A DNA stretch of 7,950 nucleotides. It comes from a virus (lineage: Duplodnaviria; Heunggongvirae; Uroviricota; Caudoviricetes). The notes beneath the pieces were generated by a model. That model was not told the DNA's origin, ran no database searches, and saw nothing but the letters and a program-made list of their open reading frames with translations. The DNA is taken from positions 1 through 7,950 of IMG/VR virus record IMGVR_UViG_3300029508_000049; one strand, given 5' to 3'. Position 1 is the first letter of the stretch; the number at the start of each line of letters is the position of its first letter. A program made the position numbers and the translations under genes. Below, one piece after another: positions 1 through 7,950 of the stretch.

Positions 1-155
1 ATCCAGCGATATTCTGCCTGGGTGTGTTCACGCGCAATGAAGAACGTACAACCGGCTATCGCCCCGTAAGCCCAGTTCCCGGTAAAAAGACCAATCAGTA
101 GCTGCGCAGCCACAGCACAAAGCGCATGAAGGAAAGGTGTTATATCCATTTTCAT
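1..155 (-). CDS. Partial ORF (first 51 codons only) for a small hydrophobic, probably membrane, protein; continues beyond the window start
   Basis: Hand translation of the minus strand from ATG 155-153 (alternative ATG 149-147 with better spacing to a TAGGA motif): MKMDITPFLHALCAVAAQLLIGLFTGNWAYGAIAGCTFFIAREHTQAEYRW.. with no stop before the window edge. Missing from the ORF track, presumably on length. Hydrophobic stretch consistent with a transmembrane helix. Identity not recognised. Confidence 0.35.
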   Translation of the reverse strand, partial: MKMDITPFLHALCAVAAQLLIGLFTGNWAYGAIAGCTFFIAREHTQAEYRW

Positions 156-161
156 CCTACC

Positions 162-185
162 CAATAAAACGGGGCGCTCGGCCCC
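162..185 (-). terminator. Rho-independent terminator after the tail fibre operon
   Basis: Minus-strand RNA: GGGGC-CGAGC-GCCCC hairpin (171-185) followed by GUUUUAUUG (162-170), beginning 7 nt after the orf346 stop. The plus strand also has an A/T-rich tail (ttaatattattt), so it could act bidirectionally. Confidence 0.55.
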
Positions 186-191
186 TTAATA

Positions 192-1232
192 TTATTTAGA
201 CGCAAGCGCCGCCTCAATTACAGATAATCTTTGTCTTAATTCTGCGTTTTCTTCTTCCAGTGCTGTTATTCTGTCGTCTGACTCTCTGGCTACCTGAACA
301 AGCAAGCCAGTAACACCAGAATAATCTACTGTGTAATAACGTTCACCTTCTTCACCTTCCGATCCGCTCGCACCGTCCTGATATTTCATTGCGGAACCTA
401 CAACTTCTGGGATTGCTTCCAGAGCTTCCTGTGCAATGACACCAGCATAGGGCATACCGTTTTCTTTAAGCGTGTATGTATAGCCGTTCATTTTACGGAT
501 GCGGTCGGTTGCATTATCGATCACCTGAATGTTGTCTTTCAGATCCCGGTCGGAATGCTGGTTAAATGCGGTGGCATGACATGCACCATTAACGCTTAAC
601 ATATAGGTGTTATCGGTATTTTTCTGCGCATAGAACATATAAGCGCCACCATCAACACCGACTTCATAAACAACAGGACGGCTGGAATTTCCCCATAATA
701 ACGTCGACACACCAGAATACGCCGTACCTTGCGTGTTTAGTGTCATGGTCGACCCGTGATTAGCATATTTGATCTGCAATGAGTCTGTATTATCAAACTT
801 AATAAGCGCGTTACTTCCCCGCACACCATACGACATGAGACAGTTCCCCATCTTAAGGTAACCATCACTGCCTGGAAAAATTAAAGTTCCTCCGTAAAGA
901 TCACTAAAGTCCCAAAAGATACCTTTTGTCCCGTTATGTGTGACGATCCTCGTCATTGTATCTTTAGTACCATCAATATTTTTTCTGGTATATATGTCAC
1001 TATAAGCGTTTTCCGTTTCACCAGTCTTATTTGACAAATGCAGCTTACCGCTGAATATAGTTCCAGTTGTTGGCAATGTTTTTTGATCATAGATTACATT
1101 GCAATAACCATTCCATGTTGTTTTATTGTCTACATAAGATTTTGTTGCGTAGCTTCCTTGATCGTTTTTTAATTTGCTAACGTCGGATTTTAGCGTTTTG
1201 ATGTCATCAGGAATTACTGTCGATGTAGCCAT
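192..1232 (-). CDS. Second tail fibre / fibre-tip protein with C-terminal intramolecular chaperone auto-processing domain (peptidase S74-like)
   Basis: 346-aa ORF, ATG 1232-1230, stop TAA 194-192. N-terminal part has a tail-fibre-type motif (SYATKSYVDNK) and is Gly/Thr/Asn/Tyr-rich as in beta-rich fibre tips. C-terminal about 120 aa (from ..NQHSDRDLKDNIQVIDNATDRIRKMNGYTYTLKENG..GVIAQEALEAIPEVV..YTVDYSGVTGLLVQVARESDDRITALEEENAELRQRL) shows the hallmark Ser...Lys dyad spacing (S227, K232) and GxIAQE / VDY motifs of endosialidase/T5 pb1-type intramolecular chaperone domains. Confidence 0.85.
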   Translation of the reverse strand: MATSTVIPDDIKTLKSDVSKLKNDQGSYATKSYVDNKTTWNGYCNVIYDQKTLPTTGTIFSGKLHLSNKTGETENAYSDIYTRKNIDGTKDTMTRIVTHNGTKGIFWDFSDLYGGTLIFPGSDGYLKMGNCLMSYGVRGSNALIKFDNTDSLQIKYANHGSTMTLNTQGTAYSGVSTLLWGNSSRPVVYEVGVDGGAYMFYAQKNTDNTYMLSVNGACHATAFNQHSDRDLKDNIQVIDNATDRIRKMNGYTYTLKENGMPYAGVIAQEALEAIPEVVGSAMKYQDGASGSEGEEGERYYTVDYSGVTGLLVQVARESDDRITALEEENAELRQRLSVIEAALASK

Positions 1233-1241
1233 TTTTCTTCC
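1233..1241 (-). promoter_or_regulatory. Shine-Dalgarno region for the 346-aa fibre gene
   Basis: Minus-strand sequence TGA-GGAAGAAAA-ATG: a GAGGAAG purine-rich motif overlaps the stop of the acidic ORF, 7 nt upstream of the ATG at 1232. Implies tight operon organisation fibre > orf93 > orf346. Confidence 0.5.
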
Positions 1242-1523
1242 TCACATCCAGCCACGAAGTTGATGCTCAACAGCAACCACGTATTCATCGAATAATGACG
1301 ATATTTGCGAATCATTAATGATGCGCACGTTTACAAAATATCCGTCTTCCTTAACACATACCGGTTCGCCATCTTCAGTCAGTTCTCCGGTTTCTTTGTA
1401 CACGTTACCTATCACGTCGATAAGAATATCATCCTGCATCGACTCATCATCATAATAGCCAATACTCTCCATAAAGGCCGAAAAGTCGGCCCTGTCTTCA
1501 AATTTGAGTGTTAAATCTTTCAT
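1242..1523 (-). CDS. Hypothetical small, highly acidic protein (93 aa), translationally coupled to the tail fibre gene; function unknown
   Basis: ATG at 1523-1521 overlaps the fibre stop in a TAATG arrangement; stop TGA at 1244-1242. By my count 22 D/E against 7 K/R in 93 residues. No family recognised by eye. GC about 40%, matching the flanking low-GC module. Confidence 0.55.
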   Translation of the reverse strand: MKDLTLKFEDRADFSAFMESIGYYDDESMQDDILIDVIGNVYKETGELTEDGEPVCVKEDGYFVNVRIINDSQISSLFDEYVVAVEHQLRGWM

Positions 1524-3895
1524 TAGATTGACTCCCCCACCTGAGCATCAGTCAATGCCTTGTGCCATATTCTGAAATTCCTGACATGACCAAATAAATG
1601 ACGTAACCCGGCTGTAGTCTGGCCTCCAATACGGATAATTGCGGTGTTCTGAATACAGGACCATGTGGTTTTTGTTTCGCTGGATATATGCCCGTTACTT
1701 ACTGAGCACGTAGACTGCTCTGACTTTACACGCATCCCCATAACCATTTTTTCAAGCGATGCGTTTTCGTTTACCCGTCTGTTAGCTCCTCCAATATCGC
1801 AATAAGGAAATCCGTCGTAATCTGTTGAACGACCGAAGCCAAGAATAATAGCCGCTCCGGTTTGATGACCGCCGGTATCAAAAACACGTGGCGCTGCATT
1901 TGGCGTTTTATACCAGTTCTTATGTACCTCACAAAGAACCGTAAAAGGAAGATTATAAAGATTATTCTTAATTGGAACTGTAACTATATCGCTTGCGCGG
2001 GTCGCCGCCGTCGCTCCTGATATAATAAAAGATGATACACAAGGCCCATCTTCTACTTGTGGGGTGGCCAGATAAATATAGTCACCAGATACGGTTGCCC
2101 CGCTCTGCTTAGGAGAATACTGTATCTGAGAGCCTATTTTTAACTCCCCATCAATTGCCTGAATTGTTGCCTCTGCAAAAATCCATCCGGTAGCTTCGTC
2201 CTTTCTGACTCTCGCTGTAATCCTTGAGGCAGCACCGCCTGTCATATTAATTTCAAGCGCTTGTGTATCAATATACGCATCACCAAGAAAAGTTGTTGCG
2301 CTACCGTCATATTTATCAAACCGGATACGCAACCTTACCTGCAGTTCTGTTTTAAAACGACATGAGGTTGTCACGTGTTTATTATCGCCTGAGACATCAA
2401 CTGACTTTGTTGCAGCAATTGATGCCATATTAATGGCTGAGGTTTGCCCAATCAGAGAATCGTTGCAGACAAACTTTCCATAGGTAAAACCAAAATTATC
2501 CGTCCCTGTTTCGGGCACATCCATATTTGACGATCGCCCCCAACTGGCAGGGCTTTCCGAATTGAGCATGTAGTTTGTTCTTTGCCCCTCAATAAGCAGG
2601 CCATCACGTTCAAATCGTGGCTCGTCAATGGCAGCCTCTGTCAGCACACCAGATTTGTTAATATAGGTTGCTTTCGATGCACGTTTAAACTTAACAATCT
2701 TGTCGCCAGGCATCGTTATTTCATCGTCACCAATAACAATTTTTTTATATGATGGCGAAAAGCCCGTAATCATATCCAGCGAATCGTTAAATGGTATCCA
2801 CACATCAGGCAGCGGCTGTAAGACATATTTATACGGCTCCGCAGCCTGGCTTGCGTACTCTCTGGCTGCATCTTCGCTTGCTTTAGCTGCCGTCTGGCTT
2901 GCTGCCGATGCTTTCGCTGAGTTCGCAGCCGCTGTTTCGCTCACCTTTGCGTTGGTTTCACTGGTTTTTGCTGCTTTTTGACTGTTAGCTGATGCAGTGG
3001 CAGAAGCAGCCGCCGCGCTTGCAGAACTGGCTGCGGCACTCTCGCTTTGGGCCGCTGCATCCTGACTGCTTTTCGCCGCAGTTTCACTGGCTTTGGCATT
3101 CGTTTCGCTGGTCTTCGCTGCCGTCTGGCTGGACTTTGCGTTAGTTTCACTCGTCTTCGCAGCTTTCTGGCTGTTAGCCGCAGCAGTTGCTGATCCAGCT
3201 GCTGAAGTCGCAGAACCGGCTGCCGCGCTCTCGCTTTGGGCTGCTGCAACCTGGCTGTTTTTTGCCGCAGTTTCACTGGCTTTGGCATTCGTTTCGCTGG
3301 TCTTCGCTGCCGTCTGGCTGGACTTTGCGTTGGTTTCGCTCGTCTTTGCGGCTGTCTCGCTGTTTTTCGCGTTGGTTTCTGATTTTTTGGCTGCTGTCGC
3401 GGAGTTTGCCGATGCAGTCTTTGAGGTCGCTGCCGCCTGTGCACTATTAGCTGCATTCGTTTCTGAGGTTTTCGCCGCGTTCTTTGATGATGCCGCTGCA
3501 GTTTCGGATTTCTTTGCCGCCGCTGCGCTCTGAGAGGCGGCTTCGGCGTTGCGTGCCACTTCTTCCACCATTGCCTCAAAACGACGCAATGCCTCCGGCA
3601 TGACATCATCTTCCGTCATGGCACCGAGAAAATCATTCAGCGTACCTGGTCTGGAACCTTCATAGACGGTAATGGTCCCGGCATGTGAAGGCGGAAAACC
3701 TTCAACCAGCAGGGTGACGCTGTACTGGCCATACTCAACATCCATGCTGTAACGCCCGGCTTCATCAGGATTTTCAGAGGCCAGCGTGTTCACCACCACA
3801 GTGGTACTGTTACGTTTTGCTTTCAGCTGGATTGTGCAGTTCTGTACCGGTTTTCCTGTGCCGTCTTTCAGTACACCAGAAATCTTTACTGTCAT
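1523..3895 (-). CDS. stf: Side tail fibre protein (lambda Stf-like N-terminal anchor, repetitive Ala-rich shaft, divergent low-GC distal domain with a possible LamG/ConA-like C-terminus)
   Basis: The ORF track opens at a GTG (3901) giving MNMTVK..; I place the start at the in-frame ATG 3895-3893 (MTVKISGVLKDGTGKPVQNCTIQLKAKRNSTTVVVNTLASENPDEAGRYSMDVEYGQYSV..), which matches the lambda Stf N-terminus (MAVKISGVLKDG..) as I recall it. Stop TAA at 1525-1523. The middle is low-complexity A/S/T/K/E-rich with tandem repeats. The C-terminus ..LFGHVRNFRIWHKALTDAQVGESI resembles the terminal motif of LamG-like jelly-roll domains. Confidence 0.88.
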   Translation of the reverse strand: MTVKISGVLKDGTGKPVQNCTIQLKAKRNSTTVVVNTLASENPDEAGRYSMDVEYGQYSVTLLVEGFPPSHAGTITVYEGSRPGTLNDFLGAMTEDDVMPEALRRFEAMVEEVARNAEAASQSAAAAKKSETAAASSKNAAKTSETNAANSAQAAATSKTASANSATAAKKSETNAKNSETAAKTSETNAKSSQTAAKTSETNAKASETAAKNSQVAAAQSESAAAGSATSAAGSATAAANSQKAAKTSETNAKSSQTAAKTSETNAKASETAAKSSQDAAAQSESAAASSASAAAASATASANSQKAAKTSETNAKVSETAAANSAKASAASQTAAKASEDAAREYASQAAEPYKYVLQPLPDVWIPFNDSLDMITGFSPSYKKIVIGDDEITMPGDKIVKFKRASKATYINKSGVLTEAAIDEPRFERDGLLIEGQRTNYMLNSESPASWGRSSNMDVPETGTDNFGFTYGKFVCNDSLIGQTSAINMASIAATKSVDVSGDNKHVTTSCRFKTELQVRLRIRFDKYDGSATTFLGDAYIDTQALEINMTGGAASRITARVRKDEATGWIFAEATIQAIDGELKIGSQIQYSPKQSGATVSGDYIYLATPQVEDGPCVSSFIISGATAATRASDIVTVPIKNNLYNLPFTVLCEVHKNWYKTPNAAPRVFDTGGHQTGAAIILGFGRSTDYDGFPYCDIGGANRRVNENASLEKMVMGMRVKSEQSTCSVSNGHISSETKTTWSCIQNTAIIRIGGQTTAGLRHLFGHVRNFRIWHKALTDAQVGESI
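2882..3394. repeat. In-frame tandem repeat, 189-bp period (63 aa), about 2 full copies plus degenerate flanking partial copies, inside the tail fibre shaft
   Basis: DNA block gtttcactggctttggcattcgtttcgctggtcttcgctgccgtctggctggactttgcgtt occurs at 3081 and again at 3270 (offset 189). Protein copies: KTSETNAKSSQTAAKTSETNAKASETAAKNSQVAAAQSESAAAGSATSAAGSATAAANSQKAA and KTSETNAKSSQTAAKTSETNAKASETAAKSSQDAAAQSESAAASSASAAAASATASANSQKAA, with a shorter SETNAK/SETAAK sub-periodicity. Confidence 0.75.
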
Positions 3896-3906
3896 ATTCA
3901 CCCCAC

Positions 3907-3933
3907 AAAAAAGCCCGCCTGAACCGGCGGGCT
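3907..3933 (-). terminator. Rho-independent terminator downstream of lom, immediately upstream of the tail fibre gene
   Basis: Minus-strand RNA: GCCCGCC-GGUUCA-GGCGGGC (perfect 7-bp GC-rich stem, 3913-3919 paired with 3926-3932) followed by UUUUUU (complement of the A6 run at 3907-3912). Starts 27 nt after the lom stop and ends about 12 nt before the fibre ATG. Confidence 0.65.
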
Positions 3934-3959
3934 GTCATAACACTGTCTTACCTGGCTAA

Positions 3960-4583
3960 TCAGAACTTATAACCGACACCCACGATGAAACCGTCAGTGC
4001 GCCAGTCGCCACTGCCGGAACCTTCATAAGCAAGGTCAATAACCACCGTCTCTACGGGACTGAACTGAATCCCGGCATTCCAGGCCGGCGACAGATGACG
4101 CGCAGTATGGCCATCACTGGCGGTGGTGGTCTCCTTCACATACCCCGGTTTCACTTCATCATGCCGGTAATCCTGAACACTGTCAGACCAGCGGGTGTAC
4201 GCCATCCCGGCCATGCCATAGAGACTGACCCGCTCACTGAGCTGCCAGACAGGGCCGGCCATCAGACTGACATAACGACCGCGCAGACTTTCATGATGGA
4301 AGGTATTTTCACCCGTCTTCATCGTGTCACTTTTCTTCACCGATGCATAACTCAGCGCGACAATGCCGCCCAGGTGATCCGTGAACTCATAACGGTATTT
4401 CACGTTAATCCCTTTTAAATCACCTGCACGCGCACCGGTACCGGACAATGCCGGTACGCCGCCCGGGTGAACCTGAGCATATCCCACGGAAAATGCACCG
4501 TGTCCGCTTTCAGCCTGTGCAGGAAGGGAAATGCCTGTCAGCAGTGCGGTCCAGAATAAAATGGCTCCGTATAAATGTCGCAT
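3960..4583 (-). CDS. lom: Lom/Ail-family outer-membrane beta-barrel protein (lysogenic-conversion 'moron')
   Basis: 207-aa ORF, ATG at 4583-4581 preceded by GAGAGG about 7 nt upstream. N-terminal signal peptide MRHLYGAILFWTALLTGISLPAQA followed by AESGHG. Strong similarity to lambda Lom as I recall it (GINVKYRYE, HESLRGRYVS, AYEGSGSGDWRTDGFIVGVGYKF), and a C-terminal aromatic residue (..YKF) typical of outer-membrane barrels. Confidence 0.93.
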   Translation of the reverse strand: MRHLYGAILFWTALLTGISLPAQAESGHGAFSVGYAQVHPGGVPALSGTGARAGDLKGINVKYRYEFTDHLGGIVALSYASVKKSDTMKTGENTFHHESLRGRYVSLMAGPVWQLSERVSLYGMAGMAYTRWSDSVQDYRHDEVKPGYVKETTTASDGHTARHLSPAWNAGIQFSPVETVVIDLAYEGSGSGDWRTDGFIVGVGYKF

Positions 4584-4607
4584 GATGACCTCTCGTTTTC
4601 AGTCAAT

Positions 4608-4631
4608 AAAAAAGGCACCTCCTGAGGTGCC
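4608..4631 (-). terminator. Intrinsic-terminator-like hairpin plus U-tract between J and lom (minus-strand sense)
   Basis: Read on the minus strand: GGCACC(UC)-loop-(GA)GGUGCC stem (4614-4631) followed directly by UUUUUUAUU (complement of the A-run at 4608-4613). Lies in the 67-nt J-lom spacer, ending about 25 nt before the lom start codon. Confidence 0.5.
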
Positions 4632-4650
4632 CGTCCGGGTTAATAAACCG

Positions 4651-7600
4651 TCAGCTGATACTGATCCCTGCCGTGGATTTTTTCATGACCACAACCAGTA
4701 AATCACTGATGTACGTTGTCGGCGTCCAGTTGTTCGCACCGGCCGACGACACATTAAACGTCAGGGTGACATGACCCCGCCCTGCCGGCATATCTATCAC
4801 CGATGAGAACACCCGGCTGACATCAGTTGCCGGTTCATGGAAAATCTCAACCCCGTTCTTCAGCACCTGCAGCTTACAGGTGGAATACCAGTACGACTGC
4901 TGATTCGGGCTGTTGAAATTCTGGTGTTTCGTCCCGCGAAACAGTACCGGGGGAATGATGATCTGCCGGTCGAAGCCCTGGTCATCGTAAACTGTGACGG
5001 TTACCGTCCCGCTGGCATAACTGTTATTCCGGGGAAAGGCTTTCCCCACCGTCTTCACCAGGTCGCCTTCAATCTGGTTTGCAGACAGTTTCCCTCTGAT
5101 GACACAGTTCTCGTTAATGGTGACATTATTGAGCGTGCCGGTATTCGCGGTAATTGCTCCGCTGATATCCGCGTTCCTGGCTGTCAGCTTCCCTTCCGGC
5201 GTCAGGGAAAACGTCGGGGGGTTGCCGGATGACGTGATACTCACCGCAAACAGTCGCTTCAGGAACACGTCGTTCATGAACAGCTGATTCCCCTGCGCCA
5301 CAAATAACGGCGTGCTGTTGCCGTTCTCCGGATTTATCATCGCGATACGGTCAGCCAGCAGCAGTATGTTGCTCAGTGGCTGGCCATCAGTATCCTCAAT
5401 CCCTGCACCAATCCCGGCCACATAGGGAATGCCGTCTTTCGTTTTTTGAACCTTCAGCATGTACAGCGCAGCCAGGTCATCATTTGTGTCCTTCTGCACG
5501 CGCTGTATCTGCTGAATGGTGGCGCTCTGGTCTTCCAGCGTTTTACTGACCGTCTGTGTGATTTCATTGCGGGTTTCGGTGATGGTGGTCTTCATCTCCG
5601 CCATCTCATCCGCAAGCTGGCTGTTGTCTATCAGCTCCCACAGCCCCTGAGCCAGATGCAGTTTTCCTATTTTTTCCCGAAACAGCCCCAGATACCCTTC
5701 TGCATCATTGCTGGCCCGGCCACTGGCTTCCACAAAAGCAGATTTCCCCACCAGGTTGACGCTGCGCACGTAAAACCAGAAATCCTTCCCGGGCTTAATG
5801 TGCGGGCCGGATACACTCCACTGACTGCCGGTCCCCAGATAACGGGCAGAGGTTTCCACCTGAGATGTGTCTGCGATTTTTGCCTCCGAAAACCAGAATT
5901 CAAACTGTACCGTCGGATCATACACCGCCAGCACCGGTACCGCCGTTATCTGAAAATACCCCGGCGTCAGTTCAATGGTGGCGGGTACCGCAGGTGCATT
6001 AATCCTGAACGTGGTGGTGGCCGGTTCGCCCTGCTGGCCATAACTGTTAATTGCCCTGACTGTCAGGGTGTATTCCCCGAGCGGCAGACCACTGAAACGA
6101 TGCTCTGTATCCGCAGTGATGGCGGTGGTCACCAGACGGCTGTCTTCTCCGCTTCCGCTGGTCAGGCGCAGACTGAAGCGCACACCCTTCACCACCCGCG
6201 GCGTGTCCCATTTCGCCTGTGCCAGATACTGACCGTCAGCCGCGCTCACCTCCACCGTCAGGTGCTGCACTGCCGGTGGAATAACGCTGTTCAGGGTGCC
6301 TGACTGCGGCTCAAAGCTGGCCCCGTTATCCACGATGGCTTCTTTTTCCGGTACGTGCTGCACTGCCGTGATGGCAAAGGTGCCGTCCGTGTTTTCCCGG
6401 ATGGAGACACAGCGGAACAGGCGACGACGCAGTGACGGCAGGGAGAGTCCCCATACACCGTATGTCTCCACACCATCAGGCAGGGTGCTGACCTGTATCC
6501 GGTCCGGCGCGGGGTGTGCAGTGATGGCCACGCTCACCGGCTTACCGCTGCCGTTAATCAGGTTCACCGCCGATGTACCTGTCTCCGGCAGGGTAACCTC
6601 ACGGTCCAGCGTCAGGGTGCGGGTGGCAGCATCAATGGACAGGACACGTCCGCCGGTCATAGTCCCGGCATAGTCGTTATCACAGATTTCAATAATGTCA
6701 CCCGGTGTGTGACGCAGCCCCTGTGACCCGAGCGTGAAGTCCACCGTCTGCGTTTCCAGCAGTTCGGTCTTTATCACCCACAGACCTGCACGGTGAGCCT
6801 GACCGCGGCTGGTACAGCCAAACGCATCCATCTTCAGCAGATTGCGTCCGTAGCGCAGTATGGCTTCCGTGTCTTCCACCAGTTCCGTGGAGGTCTGCCA
6901 GCCGTTCTGCGGGTCGGTGTAATTCACCTCCACCGCCGTGTGCCGGTCCTTCAGGGCACTGAAGCTGTAGCGGAACCCCACGCCGTTATCATCCACCACC
7001 ACATCGCTGTTGGTGTACGGCCACACCACATCCGACGGGCGGTCCTGAACGAACGTCAGCGTCTGACCGTTCCATACCGGCATACAGCGCATCGCAGAGC
7101 AGAAATCACTGAGAACGTCCCACGCCTTACGCTGTTGTGCCAGGTACGCATTAAAGGTCATCCGCGGCTCTGTGCCCCCGAAACCATCCGGGACCGTCTG
7201 GTCGCAGTACTGCCCGATGGCATACAGCGCCCACTTGTCCACATCCGCCGCCCCCAGACGTTTTCCCATGCCGTAGCGCGGGTGAGTCAGCATGTCCCAC
7301 AGACACCAGGCCGGATTGTTGCTGTATGCCGGTTTCAGACTGCCGTCCCAGATACCACTGTACGTGCGTTTTTCCGGGTCATAGTTTGACGGCACCTGGA
7401 TGATGCGACCGCGGATATGGTAGTTCACCGTCATCTGCTGGCCGCCGAACTGCTCCGCATCCACCTGCAGCCCCACAATGGCCGTGTTCGGGTAGCACTG
7501 TTTCACATCGATGATTTCGGTGTATGACGACCACAGCGTCTTATTCTGCAGCTGGTCCGTGGTGCTGTCCGCCGTCTCCCTGACCATCCGGATGTTAAAG

Positions 7601-7950
7601 GGCCGGGGAGGCAGATTATCCAGAATCACCGAGGCCAGGAACTGTGAGGTGGTCTTGCCGTTAATGGTGACGTCCTTTTCTGTCACCCAGTTACCGTTAC
7701 GCTGTAACTGAATCAGCAGGCGGACGGATGCCGGGTTACGGTCACCCTTTGAGGTGGTCTCCACCAGTGACTGCACCCCGAAGGTAACCCGCAGGCGGTC
7801 AATGTTCGCGGACGTAATGGTGCGCGTCACCGGTTTTGCCTTCGTCACTTCCACGCCCAGTCCGGTTTCAGCTCCGGAGGACTCAAAGCCTTCCGGTGGT
7901 GTCTGCTCCTGCTCCCCGGCACGCCAGACCGCGGTCACACCGTGTATCAC
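4651..7950 (-). CDS. J: Host specificity / tail tip attachment protein J (central tail fibre), partial: N-terminus lies beyond the window end
   Basis: Uninterrupted 1099-codon minus-strand frame running to the window edge; stop TGA at 4651-4653. The translation matches lambda J as I recall it along its length (e.g. [144 protein letters not shown]). The window begins about 60 residues into the lambda protein, so the leading M in the ORF track is a GTG at the window edge, not the true start. GC about 58% on a hand-counted 60-nt sample (7261-7320). Confidence 0.95.

Follow-up and report, generated by a model that had tools for sequence, protein, structure and literature searches.

Lateral tail fibres built from more than one protein have already been noted in T5-like phages and small siphoviruses (PMC8594841; bioRxiv 10.1101/2024.09.12.612763). 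For the T5-like phage IrisVonRoten (Bas32), a model has been published in which gp24 forms the distal fibre and is attached to gp22, the proximal fibre with a galectin-like domain at its C-terminus (bioRxiv 10.1101/2024.09.12.612763), and in DT57C a branched fibre in which LtfB is attached via LtfA is supported genetically, the branched fibres of DT57C and DT571/2 recognising O-antigen (PMC4728585, PMC10713586). For the lambda-type tail it was found that, in Ur-lambda, 12 copies of the collar domain at the gpV-gpM junction lead over to four trimeric side fibres (PMC12617516). Here we analyzed a tail-fibre cassette consisting of stf, orf93 and orf346 in a 7,950-nucleotide (nt) stretch of DNA, called the window in the following (positions 1 to 7,950 of the IMG/VR virus record IMGVR_UViG_3300029508_000049, Caudoviricetes), which a first-pass annotation made from the sequence alone had described as a low-GC receptor-binding cassette grafted onto a lambda-like tail. 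We consider it rather likely that a widely exchanged cassette for a compound lateral (side) tail fibre is present here in one of its alleles, with Stf as the proximal fibre, orf346 as the distal fibre and orf93 as a part of the joint between them.

Like every gene in the window, the three cassette genes are carried by the minus strand. Their positions and those of their parts are as follows, with the residues of Stf numbered according to the listed open reading frame of 792 amino acids (aa):

1523..3901, minus strand: stf as listed, 792 aa from GTG
3614..3901, minus strand: N-terminal collar domain of Stf, aa 1-96 (Pfam and PDB matches)
2777..3559, minus strand: Ala/Ser/Thr-rich repetitive shaft of Stf, aa ~115-375 (repeats, composition, high GC)
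2818..2844, no strand: left boundary of the low-GC mobile module (ends of blastn matches and GC change point 2833)
2042..2575, minus strand: distal domain D1 of Stf, aa 443-620, a jelly-roll beta-sandwich of the carbohydrate-binding-module (CBM) type
1526..2041, minus strand: distal domain D2 of Stf, aa 621-792, probably ConA/LamG-like
1242..1523, minus strand: orf93, 93 aa
192..1232, minus strand: orf346, 346 aa
1143..1232, minus strand: N-terminal 30 aa of orf346 (MATSTVIPDDIKTLKSDVSKLKNDQGSYAT), proposed docking peptide (conservation and motif)
903..1142, minus strand: variable region of orf346, aa 31-110 (lower column conservation)
555..902, minus strand: conserved fibre body of orf346, aa 111-226, upstream of the predicted cleavage site
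192..554, minus strand: C-terminal intramolecular chaperone domain of orf346, aa 227-346 plus stop (Peptidase_S74)

The stop codon of stf and the start codon of orf93 share one nucleotide in the sequence TAATG, and a 9-nt spacer (ggaagaaaa) lies between orf93 and orf346. These junctions, as well as the acidic character of orf93 (pI 4.05; 22 Asp and Glu vs. seven Lys and Arg residues), are as previously claimed, and the TAATG overlap indicates that orf93 is translationally coupled to stf. For stf itself, the listed start is a GTG at 3901, and an alternative ATG is found at 3895 with GGGGTGA upstream of it. Since this ATG agrees with the stf start in homologues and in the Ur-lambda structure, it is probably the true start, and Stf would probably comprise 790 aa.

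Comparison With Described Fibre Systems

The architecture of the cassette has already been described for gp22-gp24 of IrisVonRoten in the BASEL completion paper. The gene order of that phage, i.e., a fibre ending in HLFGH.RNFR.W, an overlapping protein of ~92 aa and a fibre with M[AV]T.T.IP.DI..LK and Peptidase_S74 (S74), is also found in the window, and the likeness extends to the stop/start overlap (4 nt in IrisVonRoten), the 9-nt spacer and the S74 end of the third fibre. gp22 is 52% identical to Stf over aa 114-792, gp23 (92 aa) is 39% identical to orf93, and gp24 starts with MVTKTVIPTDITKLK. IrisVonRoten differs in its T5-type anchor via LtfC instead of a lambda collar, in the size and shape of gp24, which has 574 aa, is 'T-shaped' and carries two receptor-binding domains, compared to the 346 aa of orf346, and in the lack of a fourth, membrane-protein gene. 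What gp23 does is left undiscussed in the IrisVonRoten paper. LtfA and LtfB of DT57C and DT571/2 likewise form a two-protein fibre, the second protein of which is mounted through the first, and also possess intramolecular chaperone domains. However, they use a docking pair of the phiEco32 gp14/gp15 type, LtfA ends in an intramolecular chaperone whereas Stf of the window ends in lectin-like domains, and no orf93-like gene is described for them in PMC4728585 and PMC10713586.

Stf-Tfa of lambda shares with the window the collar domain, the place after J and lom and the repetitive, coiled-coil-like proximal shaft. In contrast, the distal half of the window Stf is unrelated and lacks a gp37-like part (a Pfam search with Stf gave no PF03406 match), and orf93 and orf346 stand in place of the Caudo_TAP-type Tfa. 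No tfa gene directly follows stf in the window; remnants of it are only found further downstream in related loci. The receptor of the window phage is likely to be a glycan rather than OmpC. The backbone of the window is also that of the stf-orf92-membrane protein locus of phage 21, in which D1 is 93% and the product of the fourth gene 92% identical and which also adjoins sitABCD; it differs in having no third gene, an orf93 allele with 54% identity and a D2 domain with 36-58% identity.

Distribution of the Cassette

The 4-kb region is found with ~99% identity in 278 complete Escherichia coli genomes. orf346 DNA is present in 717 and the block of orf93 and the end of stf in 1182 out of 5426 E. 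coli genomes, and the exact orf93 and orf346 proteins occur in at least 999 public contigs each. Among isolated temperate phages, 2G7b, Tritos, HannyBb and PhiR63_1 match the window from 1127 to 3912 at 97-98.5%. The same gene order is present in the T5-like phage IrisVonRoten, the T1-like phages KarlJaspers, tinuso and swan01, the Dhillonvirus KarlBarth and JenP2. The cassette can be counted among the multi-protein lateral tail fibres noted for T5-like phages and small siphoviruses, as a member from lambdoid prophages, and its occurrence on such different backbones argues for a widespread, mobile tail-fibre module of E. coli phages that moves as a unit between them. Because the arrangement is common, occurs in several phage families and is already catalogued, little is left of the idea of the first-pass annotation that a non-canonical layout might define an unusual adsorption apparatus; no new kind of adsorption apparatus is revealed, the exception to what was known before being orf93, which has no assigned function. 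About one in five complete E. coli genomes carries the cassette or close variants of it, as do many phages that are considered for therapy, and the question of how its parts fit together is nevertheless of practical interest.

Stf and the Boundary of the Mobile Module

The N-terminus of Stf clearly belongs to the lambda-type tail. Residues 3-133 match the Pfam family phage_tail_N (PF08400; E 6.3e-68, 227 bits vs. a cut-off of 26.6), and residues 3-96 match residues 1-94 of Ur-lambda gpStfN (PDB 9E7M) with E 1.3e-49 and ~90% identity, which suggests that the fibre is held on the tail by this collar domain. J, lom and stf follow each other in the window in an order that is likewise annotated in L001, 2G7b and IdasGreatGrand; in phage 21, stf follows J directly, without lom. 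The shaft consists to 34% of Ala, 18% of Ser and 10% of Thr and contains a 189-nt repeat (2.2 copies over 2945-3364) with sub-repeats of 21 and 42 nt. Over its full length, Stf matches phrog_1419 (E 0), and the NCBIfam model NF048003, GTA_spike_fiber (phage head spike fibre domain), scored above the NCBI cut-off.

For the distal half, the AlphaFold2 (AF2) model, which was based on an alignment of 31 sequences with 73-100% identity, was confident for D1 alone, while D2, which ends in ...RHLFGHVRNFRIWHKALTDAQ, stayed below a pLDDT (the per-residue confidence score) of 50. The assignment of D2 as LamG-like hence rests on weak profile matches. Laminin_G_3 (PF13385) matches the window protein with E 0.0056 and 17.3 bits, which is below the cut-off of 27.6, and its homologues score better (L009 fibre, 31.0 bits and thus above the cut-off; KarlJaspers, E 3e-4; P2-like, E 1.5e-3). 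The proposed LamG tip is therefore weakly supported, by homologues, one of them above the cut-off, more than by the window protein itself, whose score is sub-threshold.

The GC contrast on which the idea of an acquired module had been founded withstood a full calculation. All five hand-counted samples were reproduced exactly (0.30, 0.417, and 0.367 vs. 0.55 and 0.583), and the GC content is not uniform, with 0.417 for orf346, 0.411 for orf93 and 0.445 for the C-terminal half of stf on the low side and 0.565 for the stf shaft, 0.548 for lom and 0.575 for J on the high side. The GC content of third codon positions (GC3) steps in the same way, from 0.38-0.43 in the cassette to 0.56-0.70 in lom and J. 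A single change point fits best at 2833 (0.433 to its left, 0.565 to its right). That the low GC only appears as such next to an Ala-rich shaft was considered and rejected, since J and lom also have a GC content of 55-58% and GC3 steps alike. At nearly the same place, blastn similarity to the window ends in the virulent 9g-like phage ESCO3 (2818), a P2-like prophage (2824) and phage 21 (2844). The interval from 2818 to 2844 hence is a recombination junction common to three different backbones, and its coincidence with the GC step supports a horizontally exchanged host-range module, here placed on a lambda-type tail with J, lom and the Stf collar, as had been proposed. ESCO3, which has a different N-terminus, matches 256-2818 at 89% by blastn and 264-2818 at 92% by megablast, and in the P2-like prophage an H-type N-terminus is fused to the same C-terminal half and followed by an orf93 homologue in the position of gpG. 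Inside the module, the identity patterns of D1, D2, orf93 and the third gene differ from phage to phage, indicating that the parts of the module also recombine independently of each other. Downstream of the cassette, remnants of a Caudo_TAP/tfa gene persist in a P2-like and in lambdoid prophages (L006 7954-8166, L001 5717-5836). It looks as if the cassette had displaced an older stf/H-tfa/G distal module.

The Short Fibre Encoded by orf346

Full-length similarity of orf346 to phrog_4563 'tail fiber protein' (E 7e-209) identifies it as a fibre protein; in addition, it gives partial matches to many families of long tail fibres, in their distal regions, and a weak match to T4 gp34. Its residues 227-278 match Peptidase_S74 with E 6.3e-14 and 52.4 bits (cut-off 22), and residues 215-328 match PDB 6F45, a structure with the molecule name long tail fiber distal subunit, with E 0.0012. 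The motif SDRDLK at 227-232 contains Ser227 and Lys232, which we take to be the catalytic dyad, as in the work on endosialidase and T5 pb1. The chaperone domain is predicted to drive trimer folding and to be released by autoproteolysis at Ser227, so that the self-cleaving fibre envisaged by the first-pass annotation is supported at the level of domain and motif. The S74 domain of orf346 opens with a Ser...Lys dyad, as in K1F endosialidase, T5 pb1 and 6F45; orf346 is unlike these fibres in that its predicted mature part has just 226 aa and in that it has a proposed N-terminal docking peptide of its own.

Sequence conservation along orf346 was examined in an alignment of 28 sequences, namely those of the window, 2G7b and ESCO3 and 25 distinct alleles of the 346 type taken from IMG/VR. 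The N-terminal 30 aa are 99% conserved, and column conservation drops to 0.82-0.91 over aa 31-110 compared to 0.94-1.0 across most of the remaining protein. 2G7b departs from the window sequence at position 1127 of the window. The variable region is likely to be the receptor-specificity determinant of orf346.

Apart from S74, no domain was recognised in a Pfam scan of orf346, neither phage_tail_N nor another tail anchor, and no Caudo_TAP match was obtained in a Pfam search. The N-terminus instead belongs to a motif, M[AV]T.T[VIN]IP.DI..LK, which comparisons including a tblastn search against phages with the orf346 N-terminus showed in lambdoid, T1-like, T5-like, 9g-like and Dhillonvirus phages, where it heads every third gene whatever the tail type or the length of the protein (203-586 aa in intact phage loci). 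These third genes start 9-12 nt after the orf93 homologue, or overlap with it in the case of KarlJaspers. An S74 C-terminus was present in the third genes scanned against Pfam, namely IrisVonRoten gp24 and the 234-aa version of IdasGreatGrand, and the short versions (227-234 aa) have ~113 residues ahead of S74. Given the lack of a recognised anchor and an N-terminal peptide that follows the cassette over four unrelated tail types, the simplest assumption is that the docking site belongs to the cassette itself and lies at the distal end of Stf. Most likely, orf346 is therefore not an independent fibre and would be mounted on Stf.

orf93 and Its Co-variation With the Third Gene

In profile searches, orf93 matches phrog_1361 only (full length, E 2.5e-46), and its family is small, with 51 representatives at 50% clustering. 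Although the structural model of orf93 was confident, a fold search with it gave no informative match and no functional clue, and neither profiles nor folds revealed similarity to Caudo_TAP, gp38 or gp57A. No paper was found in the literature that gives orf93 a function or reports it in virions. A total of 181 phage records contain homologues, among them lambdoid, T1-like, Dhillonvirus, 9g-like, T5-like and rV5-like phages; scans with T1-like and T5-like orf93 sequences found just two and three loci, respectively. In rV5_ev146 (L168 562-5333), a 110-aa relative of orf93 overlaps the stop of a 1479-aa tail fibre that ends in ...HLFGHIKDVRVWNSALTD, and no MATxTVIP-type gene follows the orf93 relative in the rV5-like myophages. 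As these phages carry an orf93 relative at the fibre stop, the pairing of this fibre end with orf93 extends to large myoviruses.

To what orf93 is linked within the cassette was assessed with two sets of loci, i.e., 76 IMG/VR loci found via the fourth gene and 80 loci found via window-type orf93. Of the first set, 37 loci contain stf, orf93 and the membrane-protein gene without a third gene, as in phage 21, and in 33 a third gene is present that codes for 227-234 or 345-346 aa. In the second set, all loci that reach far enough carry a third gene beginning with MATSTVIP (MAISTVIP in one case). For window-type orf93, 18 unique combinations were counted, involving eight D2 types and always a MATSTVIP-type third gene, whereas the 15 unique combinations of phage-21-type orf93 involve four D2 types and never a third gene; a third allele type accompanies MVTKTVIP-type fibres. 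The D2 cluster of the window is found with both orf93 types. Allele types of orf93 thus predict whether a distal fibre gene follows. In line with this, distances between orf93 sequences correlate with those between third-gene N-termini (Mantel r = 0.73, p 2e-4; partial 0.71) and less so with D2 distances (r = 0.30; partial 0.17). In IdasGreatGrand, the sole conserved island of the variable zone corresponds to window positions 1189-1630, where orf93 is flanked by the codons for the final 36 aa of Stf and for the initial 14 aa encoded by the third gene. The co-variation and this island suggest that orf93 tracks the third gene instead of the D2 domain next to it, and that orf93 and the N-terminal peptide may form a joint. 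That orf93 is a chaperone specific for D2 and co-evolves with it was considered and rejected, as the allele types are uncoupled.

Proposed Architecture and Alternative Explanations

Taken together, the following architecture is proposed. Stf would be the proximal fibre, anchored to the lambda-type tail by its collar domain, with an Ala-rich shaft that ends distally in two lectin-like beta-sandwiches, the CBM-type D1 and the putatively LamG-like D2, both of which might bind sugars. orf346 would be a short distal fibre that trimerises via its chaperone domain, is then self-cut at Ser227 and is mounted on the distal end of Stf by its conserved N-terminal peptide of ~15-30 residues, its residues 31-110 adding a further receptor-binding region. 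orf93 may be a small accessory protein associated with the tip of Stf that forms or assembles the joint, with window-type alleles going along with a distal fibre and phage-21-type alleles located on fibres that end at their lectin domains. In the long tail fibre of T4 (gp34-gp35-gp36-gp37), small connectors join the segments and orf93 may work likewise, even though it is not known to share sequence or fold similarity with the T4 joint proteins and is much smaller. Going one step further, orf93 (phrog_1361) could tentatively be regarded as a new class of joint or adaptor protein on a LamG-like tip, the allele type of which sets whether a fibre is 'capped' or allows docking of a distal fibre through the peptide M-A-T-x-T-V-I-P-x-D-I, in the manner of a plug and socket used across lambdoid, T1-like, T5-like, 9g-like and Dhillonvirus coliphages; we regard this as possible, with the odds somewhat against it.

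Several observations weigh against the proposed joint. The loci underlying the co-variation are related and not phylogenetically independent, and recombination at favoured crossover sites, i.e., in the LamG end and the N-terminal peptide, which are both conserved, could yield the same co-variation without any contact between the proteins. The model of D2 has low confidence and its Laminin_G_3 score remains sub-threshold in the window, and the fold search with orf93 offered no hint to a function. Moreover, orf93 is intact and 91-100% conserved in the 37 of 76 loci that have no third gene, and its homologue stands at the place of P2 gpG in the P2-like prophage. These last two points speak for a role that does not depend on the distal fibre, and a plain assembly chaperone fits them equally well. 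It could thus be that orf93 solely acts as a Tfa-like assembly chaperone for lectin-type Stf C-termini without being part of the virion or of a joint, orf346 docking on Stf directly or in any case without orf93. The small size and acidity of orf93 and the overlap of its start with the fibre stop codon suit such a chaperone, and so do its location at the place of gpG in P2-like prophages, where a decayed Caudo_TAP gene lies downstream, and its conservation in phage 21, ev207, ev243 and L009, which have no third gene. Yet, the orf93 allele is independent of the D2 type, with both types next to the D2 cluster of the window, and follows the presence and the N-terminus of the third gene, and similarity to Caudo_TAP, gp38 or gp57A is missing at the level of profile and fold. 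For these reasons we consider a function restricted to chaperoning unlikely, although it is the most serious competitor of the joint.

The first-pass annotation had read the locus as a long Stf fibre plus a separate short fibre formed by orf346, each sitting on the lambda-type tail. While separate genes that can each form a trimeric fibre are compatible with this reading and phages with multiple fibre sets do exist, e.g., phi92- and rV5-like phages (PMC8594841), it seems very unlikely given that orf346 has neither phage_tail_N nor another recognised anchor, that the same N-terminal peptide is found on lambda-, T1-, T5- and 9g-like tails, which have the C-terminal half of Stf and orf93 as their common factor, and that the 12 copies of the Stf collar fill the gpV-gpM junction in Ur-lambda. 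Rather than with the type of tail, the peptide travels with the cassette. Even less probable, to a degree that we hardly reckon with it, is that orf346 is a non-structural chaperone acting on Stf in trans. The annotations 'putative lateral tail fiber chaperone' and 'endosialidase chaperone', found among KarlJaspers, PeterMerian, JK16, SECphi27 and ESCO3, point in this direction, as does the length of only ~113 residues before S74 in the 227-234-aa versions; about half of the loci, however, have Stf without any third gene, and orf346 matches tail-fibre PHROGs over its full length and contains an allele-variable region typical of receptor-binding parts. Besides, S74 domains act in cis on their own polypeptide in endosialidase, T5 pb1 and related fibres, which counts against an action in trans.

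Compared to what has been described for related phages, the modestly new point is the co-variation of orf93 alleles with the third gene and the possible function of orf93 as a plug-and-socket adaptor. It touches a gap in annotation, as orf93 is called 'hypothetical' everywhere and the short fibre is variously named fibre or chaperone. If the compound fibre described above is true, a joint defined by the Stf end, orf93 and the N-terminal peptide, with freely exchanged receptor-binding parts on either side, would improve the annotation of prophages and show where fibres could rationally be spliced to engineer the host range of lambda-type and other siphophage particles.

Fourth Gene and Flanking DNA

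Besides the three fibre genes, the window contains the following features:

4651..7950, minus strand: J, truncated (window list of open reading frames)
3960..4583, minus strand: lom (window list of open reading frames)
171-185, minus strand: GC hairpin followed by a U-run, 5-bp GC stem, terminator-like in the scan
1..149, minus strand: fourth gene, ATG at 149, cut by the window end

The cassette had originally been described as three genes ending in a terminator. The hairpin at 171-185 does exist, is followed by GUUUUAUU and reaches -15.1 kcal/mol in an extended fold, but it is located in the 42-nt gap between orf346 and a co-oriented fourth gene, with an RBS-like (ribosome-binding site) GGATGA upstream of the ATG at 149. 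As this gene comes next, the hairpin is not the end of the unit, which in prophages comprises four genes and not three. Two further, strong terminator-like hairpins flank lom (3912-3933 and 4613-4632, both on the minus strand), each with an 8-bp stem and a T-run. The one at 3912-3933 stops only ~10 nt ahead of the stf RBS, and expression of stf and the cassette presumably needs late-operon antitermination or read-through. An Rfam scan of the window did not identify any RNA family.

The fourth gene encodes a 97-aa membrane protein with two transmembrane segments (UniRef name Ybl63), whose 49 residues inside the window match phrog_1443 with E 1.3e-28. It is fully annotated in L001, 2G7b and phage 21, comes after the fibre genes in almost all of the examined prophage loci and, judged by the 49 residues, is 86-100% identical in lambdoid and P2-like prophages, irrespective of whether a third gene is present. 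In the loci examined of virulent phages that carry the cassette, the fourth gene is absent. Its occurrence after prophage fibres and absence from virulent carriers hint at a role linked to lysogeny, possibly superinfection exclusion.

Beyond the fourth gene and outside the left end of the window, the iron/manganese transporter operon sitABCD adjoins the cassette in convergent orientation (L001 2055-5504, L004 1-2764). This adjacency is seen in the closest E. coli genome, phage 21, 4A7 and ev207, and is a known location of a prophage moron. In phage 4A7, transposase genes are found at the expected place of stf. Transposases of the IS3 or IS1 family also split the cassette in several E. coli genomes that are otherwise 99% identical (H2, H3, H11, H21-H23), and these prophage copies are decaying.

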